A stretch of 64,000 nt of DNA from Patescibacteria group bacterium. GTDB lineage: Bacteria; Patescibacteriota; Minisyncoccia; Minisyncoccales; PEYH01. Of this stretch, positions 5,014 to 39,253 are shown piece by piece. The notes beneath the pieces are model-generated. The model was not told the DNA's origin. It made no database searches and saw only the letters and a list, made by a program, of their open reading frames with translations. The DNA is taken from the NCBI GenBank assembly GCA_018900835.1, contig JAHIFQ010000004.1, forward strand, positions 21,141-85,140, written 5' to 3'. The position numbers were made by a program, and so were the translations under genes. How positions within the stretch are numbered: the first letter of the stretch is position 1; each line of letters starts with the position of its first letter.

Positions 5014-5017
5014 AAAA

Positions 5018-12367: not shown

Positions 12368-12410
12368 GAGAATTAACTGATGTGAATAATCTGTTAAGAA
12401 ACACTGAAAA

Positions 12411-12526: not shown

Positions 12527-12628
12527 TTTTCTCCCCAAAACTAACCCTTGCGCAACTTAAAGAAACAATTAAAATAGAGTCGTAAACTAGACGCATAGTA
12601 GTAATAATTAATGTATTAATTAAATAAT

Positions 12629-21915: not shown

Positions 21916-21925
21916 AAATAAAATG

Positions 21926-23017: not shown

Positions 23018-23051
23018 TAATTCAATCTATATTTTATCAATTTAAAAGTCA

Positions 23052-23513: not shown

Positions 23514-23514
23514 A

Positions 23515-24441
23515 ATGTTGGATAAAAAACGATTAGTTATAATTGACAGCAATGCCTTGGTTCATAGGGCGTTTCATGCCCTACCTCCCCTTACCTCTCC
23601 TAAGGGGGAGTTAGTAAATGCTGTTTACGGATTTCTCTTGGTCTTTTTGAAGGCGCTTAAAGATATGAGGCCTGATTGCGTGGCTGCGACATTTGATTTG
23701 CCAGGCCCTACTTTTAGAGACAAGATATACGAGGAATATAAGGCAAAAAGAGTAAAAGCGCCGGATGAGCTTTATAACCAGATTCCGATAATAAAAAGAG
23801 TGCTTGAGGCGTTTGGAGTTCCTGTTTTTGAGAAACAAGGATTTGAAGCCGATGATGTGATAGGCACCATAGCAAAGCATGCCAAAAGAAAGCAGATAAT
23901 CCCAGAGATAGAAGTGATTATTGTTACCGGAGATTTGGATGCCTTGCGTTTGGTTGATAAAAATACAAAGGTTTATACTCTTAAAAGGGGCCTTTCTGAT
24001 ACAGTGATTTATGATGAGCAATTAGTCAGAGAAAGGTACGATGGATTAGCCCCCGAGCAATTGACAGATTATCGCGCATTGAGGGGAGACCCATCTGACA
24101 ATATACCTGGCGTGACAGGCATTGGCCCAAAGACAGCCATAGGGCTGTTAAAAGAATTTGGGTCTGTGGACAATATCTACAAAGCGATTGAGAGCGGAGA
24201 AAGCAAGGATTTAATCTCGCTTCGCATTAAAGAAAAACTTATTGCCTATAAAGAGCAAGCGCTTTTTTCAAGGGCGCTGGCGGAGATAAACACCGATGTT
24301 CCGATTGATTTTGTTCTTGAGCAATGCCAATGCCGACCGCTGGATAGAGAAAAAATAATAAAAATTTTTCAGGAGCTTGGATTTTACAGTTTGATTAAAA
24401 GATTACCAGAGTCGCATCAGACAAAATTAGGAGATTTTTGA
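23515..24441 (+). CDS. stand-alone 5'-3' exonuclease / flap endonuclease (Pol I N-terminal domain homolog)
   Basis: ATG at 23515, 2 nt after the tsaE stop. LVIIDSNALVHRAFHALP, GFEADDVIGT, VTGDLDALRLV, GVTGIGPKTA. No polymerase domain. Confidence 0.85.
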   Translation: MLDKKRLVIIDSNALVHRAFHALPPLTSPKGELVNAVYGFLLVFLKALKDMRPDCVAATFDLPGPTFRDKIYEEYKAKRVKAPDELYNQIPIIKRVLEAFGVPVFEKQGFEADDVIGTIAKHAKRKQIIPEIEVIIVTGDLDALRLVDKNTKVYTLKRGLSDTVIYDEQLVRERYDGLAPEQLTDYRALRGDPSDNIPGVTGIGPKTAIGLLKEFGSVDNIYKAIESGESKDLISLRIKEKLIAYKEQALFSRALAEINTDVPIDFVLEQCQCRPLDREKIIKIFQELGFYSLIKRLPESHQTKLGDF

Positions 24442-24529
24442 TTTTAACGGTTCAAATCACTTTATATTCTCAATCAAAATTCCTTTCAATGGAATAAATT
24501 GTTATAATAAATGAATTAAAAAAATATTG

Positions 24530-25474
24530 ATGGCAAAAGAGCTTAAAAAAGAAAGCCAAATTAAGTCAACTATATTAGAAAACCTGGGCAAAGAGAAGGA
24601 GCGCAGAAAATATATTATTTTGGGGGTAATTGCGCTTTTTTTAGTAATGAGAATCATACTCAAACCATTCCCTTATTTTTATCATATAATTGGCGGTTAT
24701 TTGATAGTTCTTTTTTTAATAATCCCAATTACATCATACTTAAGCAACCGTCCCAATATAGGACTAAAGATGGCCAGATTGATTGTGGGGCTTATGGTCT
24801 TCGCAGAGTTAATGGCATTGAGCGCAGTTCTATACCTCTTTATGCCGGTTGCTGTTTTTTATCAAATGCGCATTTCCATTATCTCTATTCCGTTTTTCTT
24901 ATTATACGCTGTTTTGATTCATCCCTTGCTTATTTCCAAGAGGGTAAATGATTTTTTCTACCTTTTTTCATTAGCAATTTTAATCACCCTGTCAATATTG
25001 GAATATACGGGTAGGTATCCTGCTTATTCTAACTATCCTATTCTTGAGAGCCCTCTCCAACATTTGCGTGTGGCGATTATCCCTGTCGCTATTGCGCTAT
25101 TCGTTTTTTTAATAATTAGAAGTTCAATAGACCAATTTTGGGGGCGGTTCAGCAGGGCGAACATTGAACTCAAGGACATAAATGTTGGACTTGAAGAAAA
25201 AGTGAAAGAAAGGACAATAGAATTGCAGAAAAAATCAGAAGAATTAGGTGAGGCGAAAAATGTTTTAGAAATCAGGGTTGCTGCAAGAACCAGGGAGTTG
25301 AAAGAATTTGCCGAAAAATTAGAGGAAAACATTGAATTGAGAACCAGAGAATTACAGGAAAGGATAGACGAATTAGAGACATTCCATAAACTTACTGTTG
25401 GCCGGGAATTAAAGATGATTGAACTCAAGGAAGAGATAAGCGGCCTAAAAGAACAATTAATGAAAAAATTATAA
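24530..25474 (+). CDS. multi-TM protein with C-terminal signalling coiled coil (sensor half of a split kinase?)
   Basis: About six hydrophobic helices, then repeated RTxEL heptad motifs (KERTIELQKK, AARTRELKEF, ELRTRELQER) and TFHKLTVGRELKMIELKEEI. No kinase core. Confidence 0.5.
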   Translation: MAKELKKESQIKSTILENLGKEKERRKYIILGVIALFLVMRIILKPFPYFYHIIGGYLIVLFLIIPITSYLSNRPNIGLKMARLIVGLMVFAELMALSAVLYLFMPVAVFYQMRISIISIPFFLLYAVLIHPLLISKRVNDFFYLFSLAILITLSILEYTGRYPAYSNYPILESPLQHLRVAIIPVAIALFVFLIIRSSIDQFWGRFSRANIELKDINVGLEEKVKERTIELQKKSEELGEAKNVLEIRVAARTRELKEFAEKLEENIELRTRELQERIDELETFHKLTVGRELKMIELKEEISGLKEQLMKKL

Positions 25475-25475
25475 A

Positions 25476-27035
25476 ATGGTTCGACAGGCAGAAAAAGAGA
25501 TAAAGAGATTGAAGCAAGACCTGAATGAGGTGACTGCTTATTTGGATGATTTTCTTGCTTTTTTGCCTTTGTCAATTTGCGATGTAAGCCCGACCGGGAT
25601 GATAAGCAATATTAACAAGGCATTTGAAAAACTAACTAACTTTCGCTTCAGCGAGGTGGTTGGAGAATATTTATATAGTTTTTTTACTGAAAAAAGCGAT
25701 ATTAATGAGTGTCTTAATTCGTCAAAACAAGATAGCGTGGTCAAGAATAAAGAATTATCTTTGATAGTTAAAGGCAAAGGGAAAATACCGGTGAGCGCAT
25801 CATTCGCAGCGAAGAGAGACAGTAAGGGGGAATTGACAGGATATTTTGTAGGGATTACAGATATTACCATTTTGAAGGGTCTGCAAACTAAGACAGAGGA
25901 AAGAATCAAAGCGAGAACAAAGGATTTAGAGAACTCAAGAACCGCCTTGCTTAATATGCTTGAGGATACCGAAGCAGCTAAACAGCAAATAGAAAAAACA
26001 AAAAATAGAAGTCAGGTAATTTTTAACAATTTTATTGACGGATTGTTGATATTTGATTCTGCGGGAGAATTGGAGTTGTTGAACCCGCGGGCAGAGGAAC
26101 TTTTAAAAATAAAACAAGATGTTCTTATTGGGAAAACAATCGCTGAATTAGCAAATTGGTCGCAGGCAAAAGATTTGGCAAAAATACTTGAAGCTAGGAA
26201 GAAAGATGTTTTTAGGGAAGAATTGCCTTTCAAAGAAGGAGAATTGGTTGTAGAGGTTACGACACAGACGTTGAATCCAGGGGAAGAAGACGCTTCTACT
26301 TTGGTTATTCTTCATGACATTTCCAGAGAAAAGGTTATAGAGCGCTTAAAGAGCCAGTTTGTTTCAGTGGCAGCCCATCAGTTAAGGACACCTCTTTCAA
26401 TTATAAAATGGTCATTATCTATGATTTTGGAGGGAGAGATGGGAACTCTTAATTCTGAACAAAAAGAGATGTTGTCCCGCGCTAATCAGACGAATGAAAG
26501 AATGATTCGCCTGATTAATGATTTATTAAATGTTGCTAGGATAGAAGAAGGAAGATTTATGTATAAACCGACAATAATAGATTTTGGGGAGCTTGTAGAG
26601 TCAATGATTGTCTCGCTGAAGCCATTAGCGCAAAAGAAAGGCGTAAAGTTTATTTTTAAAACTTCTAAGACCAAAGCCCCGAAAGTCATTAGGGCGGATA
26701 TTGAAAAATTGACCCTTGCTGTCAAAAATATTATTGAAAATGCTATATTTTATACTGATTTGGGAGGTAGCGTAGAAATTTCCCTGACCAGAAAGAAAAA
26801 CGAAGTAGAGTTGTCTATTAAAGACAGCGGAATAGGCATTCCCAAAGACCAACACGACAGAGTTTTTACCAAATTTTTCAGGGCTGATAATGCTGTGAGA
26901 AAAGAGACCGAAGGCACTGGATTAGGTTTATTTATTGCAAAGAATGTTGTAGAATCACACAAGGGCAGGATTTTATTCGTTTCAGAAGAGAAAAAAGGCA
27001 CCACATTTACTATTTTTCTGCCAGCCATAGGATAA
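25476..27035 (+). CDS. cytoplasmic PAS-PAS histidine kinase
   Basis: Two PAS-like regions; H-box SVAAHQLRTPLS; N/G boxes NIIENAIFYT and GTGLGLFIAKN. Starts 1 nt after the preceding stop. Confidence 0.85.
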   Translation: MVRQAEKEIKRLKQDLNEVTAYLDDFLAFLPLSICDVSPTGMISNINKAFEKLTNFRFSEVVGEYLYSFFTEKSDINECLNSSKQDSVVKNKELSLIVKGKGKIPVSASFAAKRDSKGELTGYFVGITDITILKGLQTKTEERIKARTKDLENSRTALLNMLEDTEAAKQQIEKTKNRSQVIFNNFIDGLLIFDSAGELELLNPRAEELLKIKQDVLIGKTIAELANWSQAKDLAKILEARKKDVFREELPFKEGELVVEVTTQTLNPGEEDASTLVILHDISREKVIERLKSQFVSVAAHQLRTPLSIIKWSLSMILEGEMGTLNSEQKEMLSRANQTNERMIRLINDLLNVARIEEGRFMYKPTIIDFGELVESMIVSLKPLAQKKGVKFIFKTSKTKAPKVIRADIEKLTLAVKNIIENAIFYTDLGGSVEISLTRKKNEVELSIKDSGIGIPKDQHDRVFTKFFRADNAVRKETEGTGLGLFIAKNVVESHKGRILFVSEEKKGTTFTIFLPAIG

Positions 27036-27084
27036 GATGGTAAAAATAATGTGTTCGTTATAAAATAAGAAAAAGGGGTTTGCG

Positions 27085-27113
27085 TTTGACAGTCCCTGTC
27101 AAATGGTTAAAAT
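27085..27113 (+). promoter_or_regulatory. promoter with palindrome over the -35 box
   Basis: TTTGACAG-TCC-CTGTCAAA (27085-27103) contains TTGACA (27086-27091). A 16-nt spacer leads to TAAAAT (27108-27113), 26 nt before the receiver gene. Confidence 0.4.
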
Positions 27114-27139
27114 AGATATAGAATTAAAATCCAAAAAAT

Positions 27140-27523
27140 ATGGCTAAGAAAATTTTAATTATAGAAGACGAAGAATTGCTTTTGAATCTATTAAAAAAGA
27201 AGTTGAGTGAATTGGGTTACGAGGTTTTTACGGCTATTGACGGATTGCAAGGACTGGAAGGAATTAAAGAAATTGTGCCTGATTTAATATTGTTGGATAT
27301 AGTTATGCCAAAAATGGGAGGATTTGAGCTTTTGGAGAAAAAACAGGAAGACGATTCCATAAAAAATATCCCAGTGATTATTATTTCCAACTCTGGACAG
27401 CCGGTGGAATTGGAAAAAGCGAAACAATTAGGGGCCAATGATTGGCTTGTTAAAACAGAGTTTGACCCAGTGGAAGTGGTGGAAAAAGTTATAAAACAAA
27501 TCGGAGACAGCAACAATAATTAA
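27140..27523 (+). CDS. single-domain response regulator (receiver only)
   Basis: KILIIEDEELL..DLILLDIVMPKMGG..IIISNSG..A.DWLVK. Confidence 0.85.
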   Translation: MAKKILIIEDEELLLNLLKKKLSELGYEVFTAIDGLQGLEGIKEIVPDLILLDIVMPKMGGFELLEKKQEDDSIKNIPVIIISNSGQPVELEKAKQLGANDWLVKTEFDPVEVVEKVIKQIGDSNNN

Positions 27524-27528
27524 GTTAA

Positions 27529-27936
27529 TTGAGTAAAATTATGCAAGAACATATTCTCGTTATAGAAGATGATAAATTCCTAAGAGAGCTTATATCAAGA
27601 AAGCTTTTAAGCGAGGGATTTAAAATAGATGAAGCAATAGACGGAGAAGAGGGCTTGAGAAAAATAGAGGAGGCAAAACCGGACTTGGTTTTGCTTGACC
27701 TCATTCTGCCGGGACTTGATGGCTTTGAGGTGTTAGAGAGGATAAAAGACAATCCGAGCACAAATATAGTGCCTGTGCTTATACTTTCAAATCTGGGGCA
27801 AAGAGACGAGATAGAGAGGGGGCTGAAATTGGGGGCAGTTGATTTCCTGGTAAAGGCGCATTTTACACCAGAGGAAATAGTGGAAAAGATTAAAAACATT
27901 TTTGAGAAGAAATCCGCGCCCAGCAAAAGCGAATAG
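27529..27936 (+). CDS. single-domain response regulator (receiver only)
   Basis: HILVIEDDKFL..DLVLLDLILPGLDG..LILSNLG..AVDFLVK. Confidence 0.85.
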   Translation: MSKIMQEHILVIEDDKFLRELISRKLLSEGFKIDEAIDGEEGLRKIEEAKPDLVLLDLILPGLDGFEVLERIKDNPSTNIVPVLILSNLGQRDEIERGLKLGAVDFLVKAHFTPEEIVEKIKNIFEKKSAPSKSE

Positions 27937-28001
27937 TTCCATTGGTCTTGGCAAGAATAATCTCGAGGAAAGTCCTGAGCAAGGACTTTTCTTCGCGCAA
28001 T

Positions 28002-28940
28002 ATGCTTGTTTTAATTTTTGGAAAAGATACTTATAGGGCATGGCAAAAACTAAAAGAGATAGTTAGCGCTTTTGAAAAGGAAAATAAGATTTCTTTGTCT
28101 TTGGATTCGCTTGGGGATGAAGTTGTTACAATAGAAGATTTAAAAAACGAGTTAAGGCATAGCTCAATGTTTGAAAAGAAAAAAATAGTTATCCTAAGGA
28201 ATGTTCTTGGCAATGCGAATTTTAAAGAAGGAATTATAAAAGAAATTAAAAGCTTATCAGGGAACGAAGATGTCTCAATAATTTTTTATGAAGAAGGCAA
28301 TGCGTCTATTGATGCGGATTTTCTAAAACTTTTAAAGAAACAAGGCACTGTTTATAAATTTGACCTTTTAAAAGCAGAGGATTCAAAAAAATGGATTAAA
28401 GAAGAATTATCTTTACTTGGAGCGACCATTAAGCCGGATGCGCTTGTTTTATTGGTCAATTCAACAGGTGGCGATTTGTGGCGATTATCATCAGAAATCA
28501 AAAAGCTCGTTGCTTATAAGGCGGAAAAAAAGAGCATTGAAAAAAAGGATGTGGAATTATTGGTAAGACCGAACATTGAAGCCGTGATTTTTAAGACCAT
28601 TGATGCAATTGCTTCGGGAAACAAAAAAATTGCGCTTGATTTGCTATACAAACATTTGGGAAAAGGCGATTCCCCGTTCTATATCTTTTCAATGATAATA
28701 TATCAATTTAGAAATTTATTGATTGTCAAAGAATTAGAGAGCAGTTCTTTTGAGGAAAAAGTGAAGATTTTAAGGCCCATGCATCCTTTTGTTGTAAAAA
28801 AAAGCTCTTGGCTTGCCAACGAGTTTTCTTTGGTTCAACTGAAAGATATTTATTTAAAAATTTTTAAAATGGATTTGGCAGTTAAAACAGGAAAAATAAA
28901 ACCAGAGACAGCTCTGGAATTATTGATTGCAGATATTTAG
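28002..28940 (+). CDS. holA: DNA polymerase III delta subunit (HolA-like)
   Basis: ATG at 28002 (MLVLIFGKDTYRAWQKLKEI) after the hairpin AAAGTCCT-GAGCA-AGGACTTT (27969-27989). Length and pattern fit delta (..GGDLWRLSSEIKKL..). Confidence 0.65.
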   Translation: MLVLIFGKDTYRAWQKLKEIVSAFEKENKISLSLDSLGDEVVTIEDLKNELRHSSMFEKKKIVILRNVLGNANFKEGIIKEIKSLSGNEDVSIIFYEEGNASIDADFLKLLKKQGTVYKFDLLKAEDSKKWIKEELSLLGATIKPDALVLLVNSTGGDLWRLSSEIKKLVAYKAEKKSIEKKDVELLVRPNIEAVIFKTIDAIASGNKKIALDLLYKHLGKGDSPFYIFSMIIYQFRNLLIVKELESSSFEEKVKILRPMHPFVVKKSSWLANEFSLVQLKDIYLKIFKMDLAVKTGKIKPETALELLIADI

Positions 28941-28946
28941 AGGATT

Positions 28947-29201
28947 TTACTTTAGAATCCGGGTGACGCTGGATTTTTTTCTATTAGCAGTATTTTTCTT
29001 GATGACATTTTCTTTTGCCGCCTTATCAACTGCTTTGTAATACTTGGGAAGCAATTCTAACGCTTCCTTTATTTTGTTTTCTTTTTTTAAAGAAAGGATT
29101 TGTTTCTGCAAGTCCTTAATTGTTTTTTTATAACGCAAATTAGACGCCCTGTTCCTGCGTTCTTTTCTTAGTGACTTGATGGCTGCTTTTTTAATAGGCA
29201 T
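28947..29201 (-). CDS. rpsT: 30S ribosomal protein S20
   Basis: Internal ATG at 29201 gives MPIKKAAIKSLRKERRNRASNLRYKKTIKDL... The longer ORF-track start reads through an upstream heptamer repeat. Confidence 0.85.
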   Translation of the reverse strand: MPIKKAAIKSLRKERRNRASNLRYKKTIKDLQKQILSLKKENKIKEALELLPKYYKAVDKAAKENVIKKNTANRKKSSVTRILK

Positions 29202-29219
29202 ATTCTTTTTAGTAAAATT

Positions 29220-29254
29220 AAAAATGAAAAATGAAAAATGAAAAATGAAAAATA
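29220..29254. repeat. heptanucleotide tandem repeat (AAAAATG) x5
   Basis: Copies at 29220, 29227, 29234, 29241 and 29248 (the last is AAAAATA), immediately upstream of rpsT on the opposite strand. Confidence 0.9.
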
Positions 29255-29369
29255 GAAACAAGATATCTCCTTATAATTTCTTGTGATTGATACAATATCA
29301 TATCTTGATTTTTGTTTCAAGTCCAAATGATTGAAAAGAGACGAGGAATGGGGTAATATTAAAGCAGAT

Positions 29370-29672
29370 ATGGAAAAAATACCCCAATTTTTGCAGAAAT
29401 ATTTTTGGGATGTGGAATTTTTAACCCTGGACATAAAAAAGCACTCACAATTTGTTATTGAGAGGATTTTAGAATATGGAGACAAAAAATCAATAAAATG
29501 GATGGAAGATAATTTTCCTTCAGAAGAAATTAAAAATACCCTTTCTATTTCCAAAAACCTTTCGCAAAAATCAGCCAATTTTTGGCAGCTTATTTTTGAT
29601 TTAGATAAGAATAAAATTTTATGCTTGAACAAATCATTTCAAAAAAAACACAAAGCAATCTGGAGATATTAA
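29370..29672 (+). CDS. small protein paired with AbiEii-type NTase (antitoxin-like, DUF-type)
   Basis: ATG at 29370 (MEKIPQFLQKYFWDVEFLTLDIKKHSQFVIERILEYGD). Overlaps the downstream NTase gene by 52 nt. I recall this pattern as a frequent partner of AbiEii-like genes; not searched. Confidence 0.4.
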   Translation: MEKIPQFLQKYFWDVEFLTLDIKKHSQFVIERILEYGDKKSIKWMEDNFPSEEIKNTLSISKNLSQKSANFWQLIFDLDKNKILCLNKSFQKKHKAIWRY

Positions 29673-30238
29673 AAAAATCAGGCCTGATTGCAAATTTTTA
29701 TCTTGTTGGCGGCACAGGGTTGGCTTTATATTTAAAGCATCGCATTTCTGTTGATTTGGATTTTTTCAGCAAAAAAGAGTTCAACAGCCAATCAATGATT
29801 CAGAAGATTAAAAAGTTAGGTAAATTTTCAATCGCAAAAGAATCAGAAAATACTTTGACAGGAGTTTTTAATGACACAAAAATCGCTTTTTTGACATACG
29901 ATTATCCGCTTCTTTTTCCGTTGAAAAAAATTGGCAATATTAATGTTGCTGACATAAAAGATATCGCTTGTATGAAAATTTCTGCGATTTCTTCCCGTGG
30001 AAGCAAGAAGGACTTTATTGATTTATACTTTATTTGCCAGCAGGGCATTTCATTAAAACAGGCATTAGTATTGTTTGAAAAGAAATATAAGAGCATTGAT
30101 TATAATATGGTGCATATTTTGAAAAGTTTGGTCTTTTTTGATGATGCTCACAATGACCCTATGCCAAAAATGTTAGTTCCCGTTATGTGGGAACAGGTTA
30201 AGAGATTTTTTCAAGAAAAAGTAAAAACGAGTCAATGA
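29621..30238 (+). CDS. nucleotidyltransferase of the AbiEii/AbiGii toxin family
   Basis: FYLVGGTGLALYLKHRISVDLDFFS.. ..SRGSKKDFIDLYF is the characteristic DUF1814/AbiEii pattern. Confidence 0.6.
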   Translation: MLEQIISKKTQSNLEILKKSGLIANFYLVGGTGLALYLKHRISVDLDFFSKKEFNSQSMIQKIKKLGKFSIAKESENTLTGVFNDTKIAFLTYDYPLLFPLKKIGNINVADIKDIACMKISAISSRGSKKDFIDLYFICQQGISLKQALVLFEKKYKSIDYNMVHILKSLVFFDDAHNDPMPKMLVPVMWEQVKRFFQEKVKTSQ

Positions 30239-30360
30239 TTTCTTTTATCAGGGGTAAAATAAAAGCAAAAGATGAAGAATTTGTTATTGTTGAAAACAAT
30301 GATATTGGTTTTAAGGTTTTTGTTTCCCCAAAGACCTTGGAAAAATTAAATATAGGAGAG
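30233..30360 (+). repeat. 128-bp direct repeat, left copy (ruvA 5' end)
   Basis: Reads as identical by eye to 32156-32283: CA + ATG + the first 42 ruvA codons. Confidence 0.9.
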
Positions 30361-30435
30361 GTCGGGTTCGACGCGTACAGGGTCGGCTATGCCTATCAGC
30401 ACTGTGGGTCGGCGTCCGGCTTTCTCCCGCAGTAG
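30235..30435 (+). pseudogene. truncated ruvA 5' fragment (ruvA') fused to foreign sequence
   Basis: The first 42 aa (MISFIRGKIKAKDEEFVIVENNDIGFKVFVSPKTLEKLNIGE) are identical to ruvA at 32158. The frame then diverges into GC-rich DNA and stops after 66 aa. Confidence 0.75.
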
Positions 30436-30508
30436 CGCTTTGTACTCTTGAGACTTTTGAACCCTTTTGGGGGTTTGATTCCTTGTCTCCGGAGCGAAAA
30501 ACATGAAC

Positions 30509-30549
30509 GAGGGCTGGCCACACATGGTGGACAGCCCTCCTCCTCTTTT
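30509..30549 (+). terminator. strong hairpin ending the GC-rich block
   Basis: GAGGGCTG (30509-30516) pairs with CAGCCCTC (30532-30539). An inner stem pairs CCAC with GTGG. Followed by CTCCTCTTTT. Confidence 0.4.
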
Positions 30550-30832
30550 AAAATATGTATAGATTTGATATACTGATAAATGAGTATAGGCTAATGTATA
30601 GCAGTTTACGGATTGCTATCGCCGAACTCTCTCTTCAATAAAGAAAGAGAAAAAACAACCAGAATCTTGACGACTACGGTTTTCAAGAGCGAGTTGTCTT
30701 GAGGAGATACTGCTTGCTTCTGTCTATGGTAGATGTCCTGAGTTTATTAATGGGCTGCTACCGAATAAAATACAGGAAGAAGTAGAGAAATTAGGGACGT
30801 GTAGCATTTTACTTAAATTGTTAAAAATAAAT

Positions 30833-31864
30833 ATGAATAATTTTAAAAATTATTTAATAGCACAAATCAAAAAATTAACTAGCAATAAAAAAAATGTATG
30901 GATAACTGGCATTGTTATATTAATTTTAATTATTTCAATAGGAGCATGGAAAGTACTGAGCAATAAAACGCCTCTTGATATAAACTCGTCAATTGAAGAA
31001 GTATCCTTGGGCACGGATAAGACTGAACACTCTCAAGGCGAAGAAAAAGTAACCTTGGTCACAGATAAGACAGAATATGCTCAAGGTGAAAGCGTGAAAA
31101 TTGATATTTCTAATTTAACAACGAAAAATATTGAATATAGTCCAAGTTTCTCGCCATGTTGCGGCGGTGTTTTTATAGATAAAAAGAATAGTGAAAATGT
31201 ATGGAAACGTATTTATACTTCAATTGCTGAGCCACGAATAGGACCATCTTCGTCAGAAGAAAGAATGAATGAGGGCTGGCTCTTGCTAGAACCAAAGATA
31301 CAAATACAAATAGAATCGGACATGTTGGTACAAGTCGAAGGATCAAGAATTCAAGCTCCAGCTGGCATTTATCGAATTGGATTTAGATGGTATTATTCGT
31401 CTTCAGAAGACGGCAATGTGTCTTATTCTAACGAGTTTATGATTGAAGGAGATGAGAAAATGAGTTTTAACAAACAACCAACTGTTTCAACAAATAAATT
31501 AGAGTATGTACAAGGCGAAGAAATTATAATAAAAATACACAATCAAGGTACGCCTATTTTTTATCAGCCCAATCTTTGTCAACCAGAGTGTTGCTTTGCT
31601 CAAAAAACTATAAATGGAAGATTTAGAGTAGTAGATATATCACCATGCCTATCACCACCCCAAGCTCCACCTGGCGTAGACTTCGAAAGGATTCCTAGCA
31701 AGATAGAATCTGGGGAAGAAATTATTGAAATATTAGAAACAAATCCAGAATGGGAAGATGAAATAGAAGTTGGCACCTATAGACTCTTTTTTTATTATTC
31801 ACGTAACGAAGAAATGCAAGATAGCCATGCTGTATACTCTAACGAGTTTACAATTAGTCAATAG
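30833..31864 (+). CDS. membrane-anchored two-domain protein with paired Cys-Cys motifs (unknown family)
   Basis: ATG at 30833 within ORF 30818..31864; N-terminal TM VWITGIVILILIISIGAW. Two homologous halves: TDKTEYAQGESVKIDISN...CCGG...VSYSNEFMIEG, and TNKLEYVQGEEIIIKIHN...ECCF...AVYSNEFTISQ. Confidence 0.5.
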   Translation: MNNFKNYLIAQIKKLTSNKKNVWITGIVILILIISIGAWKVLSNKTPLDINSSIEEVSLGTDKTEHSQGEEKVTLVTDKTEYAQGESVKIDISNLTTKNIEYSPSFSPCCGGVFIDKKNSENVWKRIYTSIAEPRIGPSSSEERMNEGWLLLEPKIQIQIESDMLVQVEGSRIQAPAGIYRIGFRWYYSSSEDGNVSYSNEFMIEGDEKMSFNKQPTVSTNKLEYVQGEEIIIKIHNQGTPIFYQPNLCQPECCFAQKTINGRFRVVDISPCLSPPQAPPGVDFERIPSKIESGEEIIEILETNPEWEDEIEVGTYRLFFYYSRNEEMQDSHAVYSNEFTISQ

Positions 31865-31943
31865 TTATAGCAAATTAGGCAAATTAGAGACGTGTACCAT
31901 TTTACCCATTTTACTGAATGCGTTCAACAAGGGGAGCTGTTCC

Positions 31944-31970
31944 AAAAACCCTCTATTCATGAGGGTTTTT
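31944..31970 (+). terminator. intrinsic terminator
   Basis: AAAAACCCTC-TATTCAT-GAGGGTTTTT. Confidence 0.65.
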
Positions 31971-32122
31971 GAATCATTTGGCGTAGGATGTTAGAACTTT
32001 TTCAATTGGTCCATCCCGCGCAAAACATTATGTCGCCTCCTTGTGTGCGGTTTTTTTACATTGAGCGTGATATAAAGTCAAATTTTGAAAATAATTGTTT
32101 GAAAATGATAGCGAGTGGGTAG

Positions 32123-32151
32123 TTGAAAACAGGCGGGGAATAGGGTAATAT
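32123..32151 (+). promoter_or_regulatory. promoter for the intact ruvA copy (leaderless geometry)
   Basis: TTGAAA (32123-32128), 17-nt spacer, TAATAT (32146-32151); the ruvA ATG is at 32158. Confidence 0.45.
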
Positions 32152-32155
32152 TAAA

Positions 32156-32283
32156 CAATGATTTCTTTTATCAGGGGTAAAATAAAAGCAAAAGATGAAG
32201 AATTTGTTATTGTTGAAAACAATGATATTGGTTTTAAGGTTTTTGTTTCCCCAAAGACCTTGGAAAAATTAAATATAGGAGAG
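32156..32283 (+). repeat. 128-bp direct repeat, right copy (start of intact ruvA)
   Basis: Reads as identical by eye to 30233-30360. Confidence 0.9.
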
Positions 32284-32727
32284 ATAGTAGAGTTTTTTAT
32301 TTTTTTCGCTATTCGCAATGAAAAGCCGGAATTATACGGGCTTTTGACGCAGGAAGAATTAAGGGTCTTTGAAATTATAGAAAAAGTTTCAGGAATCGGG
32401 CCCAAAGGAGCAATGCTTATCGCCTCATTGGGAACATTTGACGAGCTTAAAGAAGCCATAGAAATCCAGGATTTTGGTTTTTTCTCCAAAATTAAAGGAA
32501 TCGGGAAAAAGAAAATTCAGAAGATTATCTTGGAATTAGGGGGCAGCATAAAAAGAATCGAGGAAATAAAAGATAAAAGTCCGCAACAAGACGAGGCATT
32601 CAGGGGCTTGGTAGCATTAGGGTTTTCTCAAAAAGAAGCGAAAGAGGCGTTATCAAATGTGCCAATGGAAGTCAAAGACACGAGTCAAAGAGTCCAACAG
32701 GCGTTAAGACAATTCACAAAGAAATGA
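32158..32727 (+). CDS. ruvA: Holliday junction DNA helicase subunit RuvA
   Basis: OB-fold N-terminus; HhH motifs VSGIGPKGAMLI and IKGIGKKKIQKI; C-terminal domain III ALVALGFSQKEAKEAL. Confidence 0.9.
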   Translation: MISFIRGKIKAKDEEFVIVENNDIGFKVFVSPKTLEKLNIGEIVEFFIFFAIRNEKPELYGLLTQEELRVFEIIEKVSGIGPKGAMLIASLGTFDELKEAIEIQDFGFFSKIKGIGKKKIQKIILELGGSIKRIEEIKDKSPQQDEAFRGLVALGFSQKEAKEALSNVPMEVKDTSQRVQQALRQFTKK

Positions 32728-34034
32728 TAAAAAGAATCCTAAAAAAGATTTTTCCGCAATTTCTTCTGAACTGGTATTACCAGTTTTTTCCTCTATTAGG
32801 CGCTGTTTTATATAGATTCCCGTCAAGAAAAATAGTGGTGGTTGGAGTGACTGGAACTAATGGAAAATCCACGACAATTCAGCTAATTTCGGATATTCTA
32901 AGGCAAGCGGGATTTATGGTTGCTTCGCTTTCTTCAATTCGTTTCCAAATAGGAGATAAAACAAGACAGAATAAACTTAAAATGACAATGCCGGGCCGGC
33001 TTAAGATGCATCATTTTTTAAGACAAGCGGTAAATAAAGGATGTCAATACGCTGTGCTGGAGGTAACATCTGAAGGAATCAAGCAGTTTCGTCATAAGTT
33101 TATCAATTTTGACGCGGTGATTTTCACCAATTTAGAGAAAGAACATATTGAATCCCATGGTTCATTTGAAAAATATCAACAAGCCAAAGAAAAGTTGTTC
33201 CAAGTCCGCGGGATTAAGAGCTCTATAGTTAATTTAGACGACAGGTATGCCAATGGTTTTCTGAAATTTCCAATTGAGGAGAAATGGGGATATATGATAA
33301 AGCCAAAAGCCAAAAGCCAAAAACTAGAAACAGAAAGCCAAAAGCCAAAAACAGAAACAAAGGGAATAAATATTGTAAGCGGAGAAGCAATAAGATTATT
33401 TGATGACCATTCGGAATTTTCTGTAAAAGGACAGGGATTTTTCATTCCTTTGGTCGGAGAGTTTAATATTTATAACGCTCTGGCAGCTGTTTCTTTCGGG
33501 ATGTCCCAGGGTATAGATTTAAATGTGATGGCAGAGGCCTTGAAGAAAACAGAATCTATTCCGGGTAGGATGGAATTCGTGATAAAAGAGCCGTTTAAAG
33601 TAGTGGTTGATTATGCCCATACGCCTAAAGCTCTTGAAAGCGTATATAAAACGCTTTCTATGGGAAAACAGCAGAACGCAGAAAAGAAATTAATATGTGT
33701 TTTAGGTTCTTGCGGGGGCGGTAGGGATAAATGGAAAAGACCGGCTTTCGGGTCTTTAGCAGGCCAATATTGCGATAAGATTATTTTAACCAATGAAGAC
33801 CCTTATGACGAAGACCCGATTCAAATTATTGAAGAAGTTGAGGCAGGCGTTCCCCAGAGCGCTAATTGCGAGAAGATTTTTGACAGACGAGAGGCGATTA
33901 GGAGGGCGCTGTCCTTAGCCAACCCCGGGGACACAGTGGCGATTACAGGCAAAGGGGGCGAGCCCTGGATTTGTGCGGCTGGAGGGAAAAAGATTTCCTG
34001 GGATGACAGGCAGGTAGCAAGAGAGGAAATGTAA
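32724..34034 (+). CDS. murE: Mur ligase, MurE-like (UDP-MurNAc-tripeptide synthetase)
   Basis: VVGVTGTNGKSTT, LEVTSEGIKQFR, FTNLEKEHIESHGSFEKYQQAKEKLF, DYAHTP. Contains a K/Q/P-rich low-complexity insert. Confidence 0.7.
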   Translation: MIKRILKKIFPQFLLNWYYQFFPLLGAVLYRFPSRKIVVVGVTGTNGKSTTIQLISDILRQAGFMVASLSSIRFQIGDKTRQNKLKMTMPGRLKMHHFLRQAVNKGCQYAVLEVTSEGIKQFRHKFINFDAVIFTNLEKEHIESHGSFEKYQQAKEKLFQVRGIKSSIVNLDDRYANGFLKFPIEEKWGYMIKPKAKSQKLETESQKPKTETKGINIVSGEAIRLFDDHSEFSVKGQGFFIPLVGEFNIYNALAAVSFGMSQGIDLNVMAEALKKTESIPGRMEFVIKEPFKVVVDYAHTPKALESVYKTLSMGKQQNAEKKLICVLGSCGGGRDKWKRPAFGSLAGQYCDKIILTNEDPYDEDPIQIIEEVEAGVPQSANCEKIFDRREAIRRALSLANPGDTVAITGKGGEPWICAAGGKKISWDDRQVAREEM

Positions 34035-34055
34035 TTTTTGAAATAATTTCTAAAT

Positions 34056-35492
34056 ATGGTTAAAGATGCATTCAAAAAAATAGACCAATATTTATGGGAA
34101 TTACCAGCGTCTTTTAGGCAAGGAATGAGGGTGGGCGTTAGAATCTATTCTTCTGATAAATTATGGGCGCAAATAGAAGAAGAGTCCTTAGAGCAATTGA
34201 TGAATTGCGCTTTTTTGCCGGGAATTATTGGTTACGCTTTTGGTATGCCTGATATCCATTCTGGTTATGGTCCGCCGATTGGAGGAGTTGGAGCAATGGA
34301 GATAAGCCAAGGAGTAATTTCTCCTGGATTTGTAGGGTTTGACGAAAATTGTGGGGTGCGTTTGCTTAAATCGCAACTTAATCAAAAGGAGATTGAGCCA
34401 TATTTAGAAAAGTTGGCAGACAGAATTGAAAAGGAAATTCCTTCGGGATTGGGCAGAGGCAGAAAAACAAAATTAAGCATTAACCAAATAAATAAAGTGC
34501 TTGATAATGGTGTGCCATGGTTAGTAGAGCAGGGTTATGGCGTAGAACAAGATATTGAAAATTGTGAAGAAGGGGGATGTATGCGCGATGCTGATTCCGC
34601 ATTCGTTTCAGACAGAGCAAAAAATCGCGGGAGAGACCAGCTCGGAACCTTGGGAAGCGGAAATCATTTTTTAGAAATTCAAACAGTGGAAGAAATTTAT
34701 GACAAACAAGTAGCTGAAACATTTGGATTATTTACCGGACAAATAGTGGCAATGATTCATACTGGTTCGCGGGGTTTGGGACATCAGAATTGTTCTGATT
34801 ATTTAAAATCTGCTTTACAAGCAATGCCAAAGTATAAGATTAGTGTGCCAGACAAGGAATTGGCTTGCACCCCGTTTAATTCTCCAGAAGGTCAAAATTT
34901 TCTGAAAGCAATGTATGCTGTTTGTAATTTTGCTTGGGCAAATAGGCAGATTGTCACCCATTATGCCCGCAAGGCGTTTAAGGAAATAATTGGCAATTCC
35001 AATGACCTTGTTCTTTTGTATGATGTGGCTCATAATATTGTTAAAATTGAGGAACACGAAGTTAATGGCGGAATTATGAAGTTAATAGTTCATCGCAAAG
35101 GTGCAACAAGAGCTTTCCCAGCTGGGCATTCCGGGATTCCGGAAAGATATAAGTCGGCTGGACAGCCGGTTCTTATCCCTGGTTCTATGGGAACATCTTC
35201 TTATGTCTGCGTGGGCACGGAAAAGTCAAAAGAGGCCTGGCATACAGTAAATCACGGGGCAGGGAGAGCAATGTCCAGGCATGCGGCAATTAACCAAATC
35301 AGGGGGGAAGATGTTGTTAATCACTTGCAAAAACAGGGAATTTTGGTAAAGTGTCATTCAGCGAGGAATATTGCCGAAGAAGCACCTTTGGCTTATAAAA
35401 ATATTAATGATGTAGTAGATGTAGTTCAGGGAGCAGGGCTTGCCAGAAAAGTTGCTCGATTGAAACCATTGGCAGTTATAAAGGGAGAATAA
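34056..35492 (+). CDS. rtcB: RNA-splicing ligase RtcB
   Basis: GMPDIHSGYGPPIGGV, GSGNHFLEIQ, HTGSRGLGHQ, HRKGATRA, NHGAGR. Confidence 0.9.
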   Translation: MVKDAFKKIDQYLWELPASFRQGMRVGVRIYSSDKLWAQIEEESLEQLMNCAFLPGIIGYAFGMPDIHSGYGPPIGGVGAMEISQGVISPGFVGFDENCGVRLLKSQLNQKEIEPYLEKLADRIEKEIPSGLGRGRKTKLSINQINKVLDNGVPWLVEQGYGVEQDIENCEEGGCMRDADSAFVSDRAKNRGRDQLGTLGSGNHFLEIQTVEEIYDKQVAETFGLFTGQIVAMIHTGSRGLGHQNCSDYLKSALQAMPKYKISVPDKELACTPFNSPEGQNFLKAMYAVCNFAWANRQIVTHYARKAFKEIIGNSNDLVLLYDVAHNIVKIEEHEVNGGIMKLIVHRKGATRAFPAGHSGIPERYKSAGQPVLIPGSMGTSSYVCVGTEKSKEAWHTVNHGAGRAMSRHAAINQIRGEDVVNHLQKQGILVKCHSARNIAEEAPLAYKNINDVVDVVQGAGLARKVARLKPLAVIKGE

Positions 35493-35507
35493 AAATTGAA
35501 AAATTTT

Positions 35508-35720
35508 ATGAATAAAAAATTAAATAAAAGCGCTCGCAAACATATCCGTCAGGAAAAAGCTCGTATTCGCCGGGGGACTTCAGATATTAGTAAAAGAGAA
35601 GATATGATTAAACAGTTGTATGCCAAATTTGATAATACAGCGCAAAAAGAGGTGGCTCCAAAGATATTGAAAAAATCAAAAACTTTAAAAAAACCTAAAA
35701 CAGTAAAAGTTTCTGAATAA
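35508..35720 (+). CDS. small Lys/Arg-rich protein (unknown)
   Basis: ATG at 35508 (MNKKLNKSARKHIRQEKARIRRG..). Tightly packed between rtcB and the NIF3-like gene. Confidence 0.3.
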   Translation: MNKKLNKSARKHIRQEKARIRRGTSDISKREDMIKQLYAKFDNTAQKEVAPKILKKSKTLKKPKTVKVSE

Positions 35721-36667
35721 TGAAAATACAAGACATTCATGATTTAGCAGTTCAGATGGCTATGACTGCTGACCTCCGAGGCAGAGAGGCAGTAGAAAAG
35801 TTTTTAAGCAAAAAACAGCGCGATTATGAAAATTTTTCTGAAAAAGAAAAACAGGACTTTGATTTAGAAATGCTTAAAAATCCATACTCTGATTCTCGCA
35901 TTTTAAACATATCTGAAGACAAGGAAATAAAAAAGATTTTAATCGGTATAGATATAGACCCGGCCGAGCTTTTGATGGCAAAAGAAATTGGGAATATTGA
36001 TTTGATTATTTCTCATCATCCATTAGGAAAAGCGTTAGCAACTCTTCATGAAGTAATGAATCTCCAATGCGAAGTTCTTGCCAAATACGGAGTCCCGATA
36101 AATATAGCAGAGGGGCTGATGAGAGAGAAAATATCAGAAGTGGCCCGCGGCTTAAACAAGCCAAATTCTCAAAGAACAGTTGACGCAGCTAAGCTTTTGA
36201 AATCCAATTTAATCTGTCTCCATACTGTTTGTGATAATTTGGCAGCCGATTTCCTCAAAAAAATTGTTGAAAGCAAAAAACCGGAGACAGTGGGAGAACT
36301 GTTGGATATTATAGAAAAAATTCCCGAATATAAATTATCAATCAAAAATGGAATTGGACCCAAGATTTTTGTAGGCAAAAAAGACAGTCATTGCGGAAGA
36401 ATCGCTTTTACAGAGATTACCGGAGGCACAGAGGGCTCGCCAAAGCTTTATGAAAAAATGGCGCAGGCAGGGGTTGGAACCATTGTAGGAATGCATGTTT
36501 CAGAAGAGCATAAAAGAGAAGCGGAATCAGCTCATATTAATATGGTGATAGCCGGACATATGGCTTCCGATTCCCTTGGCGTGAATCTCTTTTTAGACGA
36601 ATTGGAGAAAAAAGGGATTGAAATCGTGCCTTGCTCCGGCTTGATTAGGGTCTCCCGGAATCAATAA
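35720..36667 (+). CDS. NIF3-family dinuclear-metal-centre protein
   Basis: IDLIISHHPLGKAL and VIAGHMASDSLG match the NIF3 signature regions. Confidence 0.6.
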   Translation: MKIQDIHDLAVQMAMTADLRGREAVEKFLSKKQRDYENFSEKEKQDFDLEMLKNPYSDSRILNISEDKEIKKILIGIDIDPAELLMAKEIGNIDLIISHHPLGKALATLHEVMNLQCEVLAKYGVPINIAEGLMREKISEVARGLNKPNSQRTVDAAKLLKSNLICLHTVCDNLAADFLKKIVESKKPETVGELLDIIEKIPEYKLSIKNGIGPKIFVGKKDSHCGRIAFTEITGGTEGSPKLYEKMAQAGVGTIVGMHVSEEHKREAESAHINMVIAGHMASDSLGVNLFLDELEKKGIEIVPCSGLIRVSRNQ

Positions 36668-36813
36668 TCAATTATGTATGAAAAAATATTTTTCCAAACA
36701 AGCGAAAAAAGGAAAAGCAGGTAATACTGCTTTTAGAACTCCATCTCCCTTTATAGGCAGAAAGTGCCAAATAAAACGCAAAATAATCCAAGGAAAGTAA
36801 AATCAAGGCAGAT

Positions 36814-38415
36814 TTATTGCAGTTTTTTTATCATATAAGTTTGCTTCAGTCCATATCCTAATTTTCTGTAATAACCCCTCACTCCAACTCCGGATATCAC
36901 AGCGATATTTTTCAAGCCGAATTCTTTTTTAATAATTCTTTCTGCTTCCTGCATCAATTTTTTACCAAGCCCTCGGTGCTGGGGAGCTTTTATTTTTCGG
37001 GATATTGGCACTAATTTTCCGTAAGTGTGAATTTCCCTTACAATGCCTGAATTTTTTAGAACAGGCAAAACAATCTCGCCAGGTATTCTTAACCGCAACA
37101 AGCTGTGGAGCAGAGTTCGGTTTTTATTCTCAAAACTTAAAAATATTTCTTTTCCATTAGACGCTTCATAATCAGTTCGGAAAAGATATATTTTTTCTTT
37201 TGGATTGTAGTTGTCTTTAACTTCCCTGCACCTAATGCACTTACATTGCCATCCTTGCTGTTTTGATATTTTTTCTATCATCTGCCTTAAATTAGATGTT
37301 TTAGTTCCGCCCTGTATTATATATTGGGACGGAATATCCCTAATAATTCTTTGTATCCGACAGTAATATGGGACTGTCTTTTTGATTGCGATTATGATTT
37401 CCAAAAGTTGTTTTTCTGTGTAGGGCTTATATTCTCGTTCTTCCCAGATATCATACAAAGGAGCTTCTCTTAATAATGCGCAGGGATATATTTTTAAATA
37501 ATCAGGCCTAAAATCTGGATTTGAGAAAAGTTGTTCAAACATCTCAACATCCTTGTTCGGGTCAGACCCCAACAGGTTTGGCATCATCTGAAAACAAATT
37601 TTAAATCCAGCGTCTTTTAAGAGTTGAGTTGCCTTTATTGTTGCGTCAATATTATGCCCCCTTTTATTTATTTTTAAAATATTGTCATAGATGCTCTGAA
37701 CTCCGAGCTCAACCCTGGTCATCCCAAGTTCCCTTAATCGTTTTATTTCTTTTTTATCAATAAAGTCCGGTCTTGTTTCAATTGTAATTCCGATTATCCT
37801 GTGTCCCGCCTTTTCATTTTCTTTTTGTATTTGTTTTAGGTTTTTATTTTTTGCATGTGGTTTTGGCTTTTGGTTTTTTTGTTTTTGATTGTAGTTGTTC
37901 GCTCCCTTAAAACATTCTTTAATAAACCAATTTTGATAATTTTTCGGGTAAAACGACCATGTTCCGCCGATAATTCTTAAATCAATTTTATCTGTTGGGT
38001 GGCCGATTGCCTCAAGCGCGCGAATCCGCAATTGAACTTGTTTATATGGGTTATATTCGCATCTAATCGCCCTTGCCACTGCTGGCTCTTCTTTAAGATA
38101 GCTTTTCGGCGCATTAGCTTGGGAAGGGCAGTAAATACATTTTCCCGGACAAGGAAATGGTTTTGTAAGGACAGAAACAATAACTATCCCTGAAAGCGAC
38201 CGGATTTTTTTAATCCGCAAAGCTTCCTCAATTTTCTGGCTTGGCCTTATTCTTTTATCTTTGATTAAGGTGTGATAAGCTTCTAATAATTGGGAGTTTG
38301 GAATCATTTTCGCGCTTTTTTTCTTGGAATAAGAACGCTTCAATGAACTCAAAATCTCGGGGCTTAAATCCTTTTCTTTAAAAAGAGCGATAATGATTTC
38401 TTTTGCCAATTCCAT
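36814..38415 (-). CDS. elp3: Elp3-type radical-SAM / GNAT enzyme (tRNA U34 carboxymethylation family)
   Basis: 533 aa. Radical-SAM cluster motif FPCPGKCIYCP, TIM-barrel region ..ITIETRPD..RVELGVQS.., and a C-terminal GNAT QHRGLGKKLMQEAERI. Confidence 0.75.
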   Translation of the reverse strand: MELAKEIIIALFKEKDLSPEILSSLKRSYSKKKSAKMIPNSQLLEAYHTLIKDKRIRPSQKIEEALRIKKIRSLSGIVIVSVLTKPFPCPGKCIYCPSQANAPKSYLKEEPAVARAIRCEYNPYKQVQLRIRALEAIGHPTDKIDLRIIGGTWSFYPKNYQNWFIKECFKGANNYNQKQKNQKPKPHAKNKNLKQIQKENEKAGHRIIGITIETRPDFIDKKEIKRLRELGMTRVELGVQSIYDNILKINKRGHNIDATIKATQLLKDAGFKICFQMMPNLLGSDPNKDVEMFEQLFSNPDFRPDYLKIYPCALLREAPLYDIWEEREYKPYTEKQLLEIIIAIKKTVPYYCRIQRIIRDIPSQYIIQGGTKTSNLRQMIEKISKQQGWQCKCIRCREVKDNYNPKEKIYLFRTDYEASNGKEIFLSFENKNRTLLHSLLRLRIPGEIVLPVLKNSGIVREIHTYGKLVPISRKIKAPQHRGLGKKLMQEAERIIKKEFGLKNIAVISGVGVRGYYRKLGYGLKQTYMIKKLQ

Positions 38416-38418
38416 ATT

Positions 38419-39120: not shown

Positions 39121-39150
39121 TTTTGGAAACCAGGTTTCCAAAATGATTTA

Positions 39151-39222
39151 GTCCCTGTGGTTCAATGGATAAAACACCTCCCTCCGGAGGAGGAAATGGC
39201 TGTTCGAATCAGCCCAGGGACA
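39151..39222 (+). tRNA. tRNA-Arg (anticodon CCG)
   Basis: Cloverleaf: acceptor GTCCCTG/CAGGGAC, anticodon arm CCTCC-CTCCGGA-GGAGG, T arm GGCTG-TTCGAAT-CAGCC, discriminator A. CCA is not encoded. Confidence 0.85.
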
Positions 39223-39253
39223 CAAGATTCGAACCCTACCCCCGGAGCAATAT

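Follow-up and report, generated by a model that had tools for sequence, protein, structure and literature searches.

Diversity-generating retroelements (DGRs) are abundant in the candidate phyla radiation (CPR)/Patescibacteria. Islands and prophages that are mediated by an integrase bring along a copy of the end of the gene which they enter and thereby restore it, classically the 3' end of a tRNA or a transfer-messenger RNA (tmRNA) gene. Among the DGRs, the cellular 'clade 2' was reported to be restricted to Patescibacteria (Roux et al., 2021; PMC8144416). Here we describe the ruvA locus of a Patescibacteria group bacterium (NCBI assembly GCA_018900835.1, contig JAHIFQ010000004.1, positions 21,141 to 85,140), which was analysed as one stretch of 64,000 nucleotides with a GC content of 36.9%, called the window below. 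At this locus the first 42 codons of ruvA are present twice, as a direct repeat (R), with 1.8 kb of other DNA between the copies. The insert starts with a remnant of a dead DGR, and the whole is probably a recombination scar in which an allele carrying a DUF6922/AbiEii gene pair and an allele carrying a DGR were put in tandem, and not a discrete integrating element.

Over its left 420 nt, the insert resembles the clade 2 DGRs of Patescibacteria, as this part consists of the 3' end of a variable repeat (VR), the post-VR hairpin and the spacer between the VR and the template repeat (TR), and a complete cassette is present in the sister-species locus L008. In contrast to those systems, the window copy is without reverse transcriptase (RT), bAvd, TR and about 90% of the target gene, and its invariant stump is fused to ruvA codons 1-42. 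The locus also resembles the products of homology-facilitated illegitimate recombination, having one junction without homology, continuous homology on the other side (promoter P-ruvA-murE and onwards) and foreign DNA beside the anchor; however, donor and recipient are inferred here, and the join would lie inside the anchor gene, so that 128 bp are duplicated and no recipient DNA is deleted. With integrase islands it shares the direct repeats derived from the target gene on both flanks of the insert, and the presence of one intact and one displaced gene fragment. Unlike these islands, the window has no integrase and no conserved ends, the sister-species insert is flanked by other sequence, and the repeat is bounded by an indel (the gene pair) and an illegitimate junction, not by an attachment (att) core. 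At recombination hot spots where modules replace one another and displaced 'orphan' fragments of genes remain, such as the type VI secretion system effector/immunity arrays of Vibrio cholerae (PMC5361080), a short conserved stretch is likewise duplicated when a module recombines and a truncated copy is left behind, although in the window the fragment is the 5' end of a housekeeping gene and the module is a decaying DGR.

Both the dead DGR stump and the recombination-made duplication are of known kinds, and the ruvA fusion is a curiosity. The locus does not appear to represent a rare class of elements that target the 5' end of a gene and replace its promoter; the evidence points to an ordinary but instructive case, a clean, dated-looking example of DGR cassette loss and of the rewiring of a housekeeping gene in reduced CPR genomes. 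The most reusable by-product is a structured RNA element with strong covariation support, which is described below.

Duplication of the ruvA 5' End

Relatives of the locus were gathered by RuvA-based searches of genome and metagenome collections and by exact-protein look-ups (RuvA identity 79-90%), and they were compared with the window by synteny mapping and by alignments of the rpsT-ruvA interval; they are given below as L numbers. When the window was compared with itself by blastn, positions 30233-30360 and 32156-32283 were found to be identical over 128/128 nt in direct orientation (E = 2.5e-62). The sequences beside the two R copies differ from the first base on both sides, and the DNA between them measures 1,795 bp (30361-32155). 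The genes and repeat copies concerned were as follows.

29373 to 29672, forward strand: DUF6922 gene, partner of AbiEii (Pfam PF21956, 1.1e-15), conserved in L007 and L008.
29621 to 30238, forward strand: gene of an AbiEii-family nucleotidyltransferase toxin (PF08843, 5e-16), with the same ruvA junction in L007 and L008.
30233 to 30360, forward strand: left R copy, CA plus ruvA codons 1-42, in the TA-ruvA context found natively in L007, L008 and L020.
30235 to 30435, forward strand: ruvA', a chimeric open reading frame (ORF) of 66 aa, made of RuvA residues 1-42 and the in-frame last 24 codons of a DGR target.
32156 to 32283, forward strand: right R copy, identical to the left copy.
32158 to 32727, forward strand: full-length ruvA, 189 aa, with RuvA_N, HHH_5 and RuvA_C (Pfam) and orthologues at 79-90% identity.

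The DUF6922 and AbiEii genes are referred to as the toxin-antitoxin (TA) pair. The TGA stop of the AbiEii-family gene overlaps the ATG of ruvA', and the first 42 residues of the latter matched RuvA_N. It is clear from these data that the first-pass annotation, made from the sequence alone, had described the repeat itself correctly: the perfect 128-bp duplication, the left-copy ATG overlapping an AbiEii-like stop at the head of a 66-aa ruvA', and the right copy running on into a complete ruvA were all borne out by the alignment, the ORFs and the Pfam matches.

A DGR Remnant at the Left End of the Insert

In ruvA', codon 42 is followed by 24 further codons (VGFDAYRVGYAYQHCGSASGFLPQ, then the stop), which are those of the C-terminus of a DGR target and are read in their own frame. 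The insert of L008 lies at the same place between rpsT and ruvA, before the TA pair, and has all the parts of a canonical DGR. Its target gene (2018-2926, 302 aa) ends in ...GSASGFLPQ and the stop; VR (2795-2924) and TR (3352-3481) are 90% identical, with 13/13 mismatches at TR adenines; and bAvd, on the opposite strand (PF22296, 5e-19), and RT (RVT_1, 1e-21) are both present. Window positions 30362-30781 aligned with L008 2853-3304 at 78.6% identity (E = 6e-113), a segment which spans the 3'-terminal 72 nt of the VR with the stop codon, a GC-rich terminator hairpin and about 230 nt of conserved spacer before the TR, and positions 30366-30433 also matched the L008 TR. The tblastn search with the L008 target placed its last 26 residues (277-302) on the ruvA' tail in the same frame, from 30355 on, and when the VR stump was compared with the L008 TR, 10 of the 14 differences fell at TR adenines. 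At the other end of the insert, 32034-32155 matched L008 5003-5129, consisting of post-RT DNA and P, at 85% (E = 2.5e-35). Two features of the left part were delimited in this way.

30361 to 30435, forward strand: VR remnant (3' 72 nt of the VR plus the stop), the invariant GC-rich 3' end, from the alignment with L008 and L016.
30509 to 30539, forward strand: 13-bp GC-rich hairpin with a T-rich tract, the terminator of the target gene or post-VR hairpin, at the same position in L008 and L016.

In only two stretches of the window does the GC content reach 62%, and the VR remnant is one of them, hence its foreign look to the earlier reader; what had been taken for foreign GC-rich DNA after codon 42 is the in-frame end of a DGR VR, its terminator hairpin and a conserved structured RNA. 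The window keeps a VR at the 3' end of an ORF, with its GC-rich invariant end and the hairpin downstream, for the last 24 codons of the target only, and the 5' 230 codons are gone. Searching the 64-kb window with the L008 RT by tblastn gave nothing better than E 5.6; neither a bAvd homologue nor a TR was found in the window, and 30361-30440 had no second copy there. The bAvd gene was present in L008, L013, L016, L144 and L146. Furthermore, the VR stump was identical in the window, ENA ERZ27247124, GCA_018900315.1 and SRR9644739, and this invariance across four assemblies indicates that it is not being diversified. The window DGR is dead: the 5' part of its target has been lost, and TR-bAvd-RT have been replaced by the region of ORF343, an ORF described below.

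The RT belongs to a very large family, in that 7,525 of the 8,000 candidates scored were relatives at E <= 1e-30, and the closest relative (80% identity) was present only on 1.3-kb contigs without useful flanks. By eye, the target gene and VR/TR of L008 (2018-2926) looked markedly more GC-rich than bAvd/RT (3534-4958) and the host genome, so that one and the same cassette would be sharply heterogeneous in composition.

The Arrangement in Independent Assemblies

The contigs of the window strain all showed the occupied form or were broken at the repeat. The whole arrangement was present base for base in contig k141_379626 of ENA ERZ27247124, a MEGAHIT assembly made with k=141; as this k exceeds the repeat length, its k-mers span R together with the flanks, so that integration can be distinguished from an empty site accompanied by a circle. 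NCBI contig JAHIGO010000005.1 (GCA_018900315.1) begins 59 nt inside the left R and continues through the insert and the right R into ruvA, and the junction between R and the insert was also found in the Logan contig of SRR9644739. In SRR6976411, a Logan contig has the junction between AbiEii and R and stops at the final base of the left R.

These contigs bear on the possibility of an assembly artefact, in which a repeat was collapsed or wrongly joined, or an empty chromosome coexisted with a small circle that has the 128 bp in common with it. Such an artefact would fit the repeat length, since 128 is 127 + 1 and lies near the largest SPAdes k-mer, and the exact breakage of one Logan contig at the end of the left R. 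However, an assembly with k=31 is expected to break at a true repeat, so this break is just what a true repeat gives; the path AbiEii-R-insert-R-ruvA stands in the k=141 contig, whose k-mers cover the repeat and its flanks; and the R/insert junction recurs in three further independent data sets. With the junctions recurring in at least four independent assemblies, one of them with k=141, the chimera or collapsed repeat that had been put forward as a refutation was not encountered, and we regard an artefact as extremely unlikely.

The Logan contig of SRR9644739 (L006) corresponds to window 30331-31989, ending about 10 nt before the homology to the post-RT segment of L008 begins. This end may mark the branch to a co-existing allele in the same sample, for example one that retains the RT.

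The rpsT-ruvA Interval in Relatives and Its Promoter Copies

The interval between rpsT and ruvA was found in several states among the relatives.

L007/L010: rpsT-P-DUF6922-AbiEii-ruvA, an uninterrupted overlap of AbiEii stop and ruvA start, that is, an empty site.
L020/L021 (the closest, RuvA 90%): as L007/L010, with internal deletions that leave about 190 nt of the TA pair.
L009 and L022/L023: rpsT-P-ruvA, without the TA pair.
L008/L011/L012: rpsT-P'(28 nt)-3.3-kb insert-P-DUF6922-AbiEii-ruvA.

The remnants of DUF6922/AbiEii lie upstream of ruvA, in L020 1-340 and L021 1-356. These remnants and the TA-less L009 and L022 indicate that the TA pair has been gained and lost at the site within the genus. 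The uninterrupted AbiEii-stop/ruvA-start overlap, for which a check in relatives had been proposed earlier, was thus found in L007/L010 and L020/L021; the arrangement of the window is not fixed, and relative to the empty sites the window segment is an insertion or duplication. The context of the left R copy matches L007/L008/L020, and that of the right R copy matches L009/L022. The rpsT-ruvA interval is a structurally variable spot, a hot spot for the gain and loss of a TA pair, a DGR cassette and an orphan gene for a surface protein.

Upstream of both R copies, a promoter copy was recognized.

29331 to 29363, forward strand: P', promoter-like (TTGAAA-17-TAATAT), upstream of the TA pair and 88% identical to 32123-32155.
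32123 to 32155, forward strand: P, second copy of the native ruvA/TA promoter, abutting ruvA as in the TA-less L009 and L022.

The match between the 33 nt 5' of the right R copy and 29331-29363 (88% identity, E = 2.5e-5 within the window, with differences at 4/33 positions) had been overlooked in the first-pass annotation, in which the promoter before the intact ruvA was regarded as borne in by the insert. Its presence, its spacing (TTGAAA-17-TAATAT at 32123-32151) and the 6 nt left before the ruvA ATG all held; its foreign origin did not, because it is a copy of the native ruvA promoter. On the right side P and R are contiguous, and on the left side P' is followed by 869 bp of DUF6922/AbiEii and then by R. 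The left limit of the repeat is the TA/ruvA junction, because there the TA pair breaks the homology that runs from P into R. The length of the P-ruvA junction on the right side of the window (TTAAACAATG) is equal to that of L009/L022 (TTAAGCAATG). A retro-duplication of the 5' end of the ruvA mRNA had also been considered, with R beginning at most 2 nt from the predicted transcription start; it was rejected, as the left copy has the native TA-ruvA context of L007/L008 and the left limit of the repeat is the TA/ruvA junction.

As P ends 6 nt before the ATG, the ruvA mRNA of the window is predicted to be leaderless or nearly so. In L007 and L008, ruvA is presumably coupled in translation to AbiEii and transcribed from P through the TA pair. 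The window ruvA, on the other hand, would be uncoupled from the TA operon and expressed from its own copy of P, and the TA operon would now end in the 66-aa RuvA(1-42)::VR chimera, followed by the old terminator of the target gene.

Related DGR cassettes were also located away from ruvA.

L013: DGR cassette between clpP and an H+-PPase gene.
L016: DGR cassette beside ftsX and a prophage-like region.
L144: DGR cassette beside a DEAD-box helicase gene.
L146: DGR cassette beside a ParB-methylase gene.

All four have the order target, spacer RNA, TR, reversed bAvd and RT in common. In L008, the cassette homology begins at 1829, directly after P'. The four unrelated loci argue that the cassette relocates over evolutionary time without a dedicated att site. 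Judged from its borders, which are P in L008, the ruvA 5' end in the window and neither of them elsewhere, there is no sign that ruvA is the target of the DGR cassette.

Origin of the Arrangement

The recombination scar formed from a TA allele and a DGR allele appears to us the probable explanation. The order and mechanism of events, as we infer them from the homologies, the in-frame fusion, the allele types of the relatives and the failure to detect DGR enzymes or recombinases in the window, would be as follows. Two kinds of allele would have been present in the clade, namely rpsT-P-[DUF6922/AbiEii]-ruvA and rpsT-P'-[DGR cassette]-P-..., the latter with or without the TA pair before ruvA, and the window would hold both in tandem, following the TA allele through ruvA codon 42 and then the DGR allele from mid-VR to P-ruvA. 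One illegitimate join with 0-3 nt of microhomology would have connected ruvA codon 42 to the VR at 24 codons before the target stop, and an ordinary homologous exchange in the shared flanking DNA would have followed. Homology-facilitated illegitimate recombination of incoming linear DNA could have achieved this or, equally, a circle closed beforehand at the illegitimate join could have integrated by a Campbell-type single crossover within its 128 bp of ruvA; by either route 128 bp would become duplicated, with the TA/ruvA junction as left bound and the illegitimate junction as right bound. The illegitimate junction, in which ...ATAGGAGAG meets GTCGGGTTC... (GGAGAG/GTCGGG), leaves at most about 3 nt of conceivable microhomology, and the other side, P-R-ruvA, is in continuous homology and collinear with L009/L022.

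Certain observations weigh against this scar of two alleles. The alleles seen were TA (L007), DGR plus TA (L008) and TA-less (L009, L022); the required parent, DGR-P-ruvA without the TA pair, was not found, and in L008, with the sole intact DGR of this spot, P is separated from ruvA by the TA pair. Moreover, the R copies are 100% identical though P and P' differ at 4/33 positions, so that the donor would have to belong to the same population, the event to be very recent, or the copies to have undergone gene conversion. The microhomology at the junction may also be impossible to establish, the ancestral VR sequence being presumably hypervariable.

The 100% identity of R would be explained without a second strain if the locus had arisen within one chromosome from an L008-like ancestor, rpsT-P'-DGR-P-TA-ruvA, through an illegitimate exchange of sister strands between codon 42 and mid-VR. 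This would have produced a tandem duplication of [VR3'...P-TA-R], with later loss of the first DGR (P' x P) and of the second TA pair. The sole intact DGR at the locus has the architecture of this ancestor, the P'/P direct repeats able to delete the DGR exist, and the TA pair is visibly eroding by deletions in the closest relatives L020/L021. However, three events are needed, including a base-precise deletion of the 869-bp TA segment without flanking microhomology, and a P-ruvA junction of the same length as in the TA-less L009/L022 is not expected of a random deletion; we therefore hold this course of events to be unlikely. The same additional deletions would be required by an aberrant DGR retrohoming, in which a cDNA primed at the VR 3' end was resolved at its far end by microhomology at ruvA codon 42 on the sister chromosome. 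In the model established for Bordetella phage BPP-1, the VR 3' end is copied first in retrohoming, and the junction lies inside the VR, 72 nt from the 3' end, in the region copied first; the fusion preserves the reading frame, and in its VR part there are adenine-type substitutions. Such substitutions are expected in any VR, however, and do not date the junction, an in-frame fusion has a chance expectation of 1 in 3, and RT and TR are gone from the window. No observation points to retrohoming specifically, and we regard it as very unlikely. If it were true, DGR reverse transcription would occasionally make gene fusions and segmental duplications beside its target, and the 66-aa chimera, with the VR 3' recognition end and the hairpin after it, would be the fossil of an off-target event.

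The model of the first-pass annotation was that a non-autonomous or decayed element, with its recombinase encoded elsewhere, had integrated site-specifically into the 5' end of ruvA, bringing along a new 5' end and promoter for the gene, the 128-bp repeats being attL and attR. Perfect 128-nt direct repeats do flank the segment, identical at both boundaries, empty sites do exist in relatives, and the promoter of the intact ruvA does lie on the insert side. The absence of integrase and transposase genes from the 1,795 bp, which had been noted before, was confirmed by ORFs and Pfam, and the ORFs of 150 aa or more in the 64-kb window, all put to Pfam but for a few overlapping or short ones, gave no recombinase, integrase or transposase. 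Yet the left boundary, which reads GTCGGGTTCGAC..., is no terminus of a discrete element, being a VR of which only the final 72 nt remain, joined in frame to ruvA. The homologous insert of L008/L011/L012 precedes the TA pair, and its flanks are 28-nt copies of P and not ruvA sequence, so that the two inserts have no att site in common; the promoter duplicates the native one, at a junction collinear with the TA-less L009 and L022; and the segment is itself composite, with a gene between 33-nt repeats nested in it. A search for further copies of the 1.8-kb segment gave no match in phage or plasmid collections. Site-specific integration thus appears quite improbable, and of the decayed island suggested as one of its forms, the decay of the intervening DNA stands and a discrete element finds no support.

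A Conserved Structured RNA in the VR-TR Spacer

The spacer that follows the post-VR hairpin contains one further element.

30556 to 30785, forward strand: conserved structured non-coding element of the VR-TR spacer, about 220 nt, intact in the window though TR, Avd and RT are gone.

It was found in six cassettes, namely those of the window, L008 (3046-3308), L016 (5188-5402), L013 (5190-5405), L146 (2684-2906) and L144 (2664-2910), and a profile located it at the same position in L144 (E = 8e-33) and L146 (E = 2e-50). The element is about 80% identical to that of L016, whereas the RT gene is only about 67% identical to that of L016 at the DNA level. RNAalifold predicted 59 pairs in 7 helices. 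In this structure, 96.3% of the cells were paired, against 42-47% when the 3' partners were slid by 1-3 columns, and 25 pairs were changed on both sides, against 3-5 in the slid controls; 0/500 shuffles reached the observed values. The GC-rich mini-insertions of L008 and L144 are confined to apical loops, and just 5' of the TR there is an invariant box, CCGAATAAAAT.

No Rfam family matched the RNA element at E <= 1, and over 28500-33500 the same threshold gave no known RNA in the GC-rich block, with only a chance IS128 match elsewhere; ARAGORN found no tRNA or tmRNA in this block. Further copies were sought in IMG/VR with the pattern CTTGCT-N35-60-CCGAATAAAAT, which gave 120 loci; 0 of them fitted the profile, and they were dismissed as chance matches. 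In this very large clade, the element may belong to the DGR template RNA, perhaps as its 5' domain. Among the RT-associated RNA motifs described before, RT-1 to RT-19 are possibly related to retrons or DGRs (Weinberg et al., 2017; PMC5737381).

Short GC-rich palindromic insertions (e.g., GCCTGCC...GGCAGGC) were also seen in AT-rich intergenic DNA and in the loops of the DGR RNA, at L007 ~4880-5030, L008 3100-3137, L144 ~2775-2800 and L001 ~15100-15150, and they may constitute a family of miniature repeats. No comparable palindromic element was seen at the locus of the window itself.

ORF343 and the Right End of the Insert

Window positions 30782-32033 with ORF343 occupy the place where TR-bAvd-RT stand in L008. 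The features of this part were as follows.

30780 to 30812, forward strand: left copy of a 33-nt imperfect direct repeat, starting exactly where the L008 DGR homology stops.
30833 to 31864, forward strand: ORF343, with an N-terminal membrane anchor and two tandem Ig-like domains, weakly Big_14-like.
31873 to 31905, forward strand: right copy of the 33-nt imperfect direct repeat, on the other side of ORF343.
32034 to 32122, forward strand: post-RT-like segment, 85% identical to the L008 DNA downstream of RT and absent from the L013 and L016 cassettes.

The membrane-anchored two-domain ORF noticed earlier between the R copies was recovered as ORF343. Its two Ig-like domains are 30% identical to each other, and its relatives comprised one identical cluster (three NCBI accessions of metagenome-assembled genomes) and four weak Ig-like matches, from which no other genomic context was obtained; it is otherwise an orphan. 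The 33-nt repeat has a core of 25 nt with 2 mismatches, for which 0 occurrences are expected by chance in 64 kb, and the motif was not found in any related locus. These data suggest that a separate insertion or replacement event brought in ORF343.

An older duplication of about 100 nt, consisting of the rpsT intergenic region and P and flanking the DGR, was also considered. It was rejected, since the local alignment was no better than those of shuffled sequences, 373/2000 and 1097/2000 of which scored as high; the older repeat is accordingly limited to the 28-33 nt of P, and 32034-32122, which has its counterpart in L008 only, is not a diverged copy of the rpsT intergenic DNA.

Other Features of the Window

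Further observations were made along the window. A TraG/VirB4-like P-loop ATPase gene at 1119-4718 is broken by an intein with a LAGLIDADG homing-endonuclease domain, and it is followed at 4970-9116 by two large proteins with pilin domains of the type IV secretion system kind. The dnaA-dnaN genes at 10988-13762, likely the origin region, lie about 20 kb upstream of the ruvA locus; ruvB is separate, on the minus strand at 19423-20478, 12 kb from ruvA; and the tmRNA gene is located at 57339-57716.

The window and the ENA contig of the same species (L001/L004) are identical over 20833-36730. Beyond this stretch, at 36731-39121, 40 clustered single-nucleotide polymorphisms were observed, mostly at 38116-38667, around the 5' end of a radical-SAM gene (36814-38415), and right after tRNA-Arg (39151-39223) the two sequences diverge completely, from 39249 on. 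This pattern suggests a recombination tract and a strain-variable region beside tRNA-Arg.

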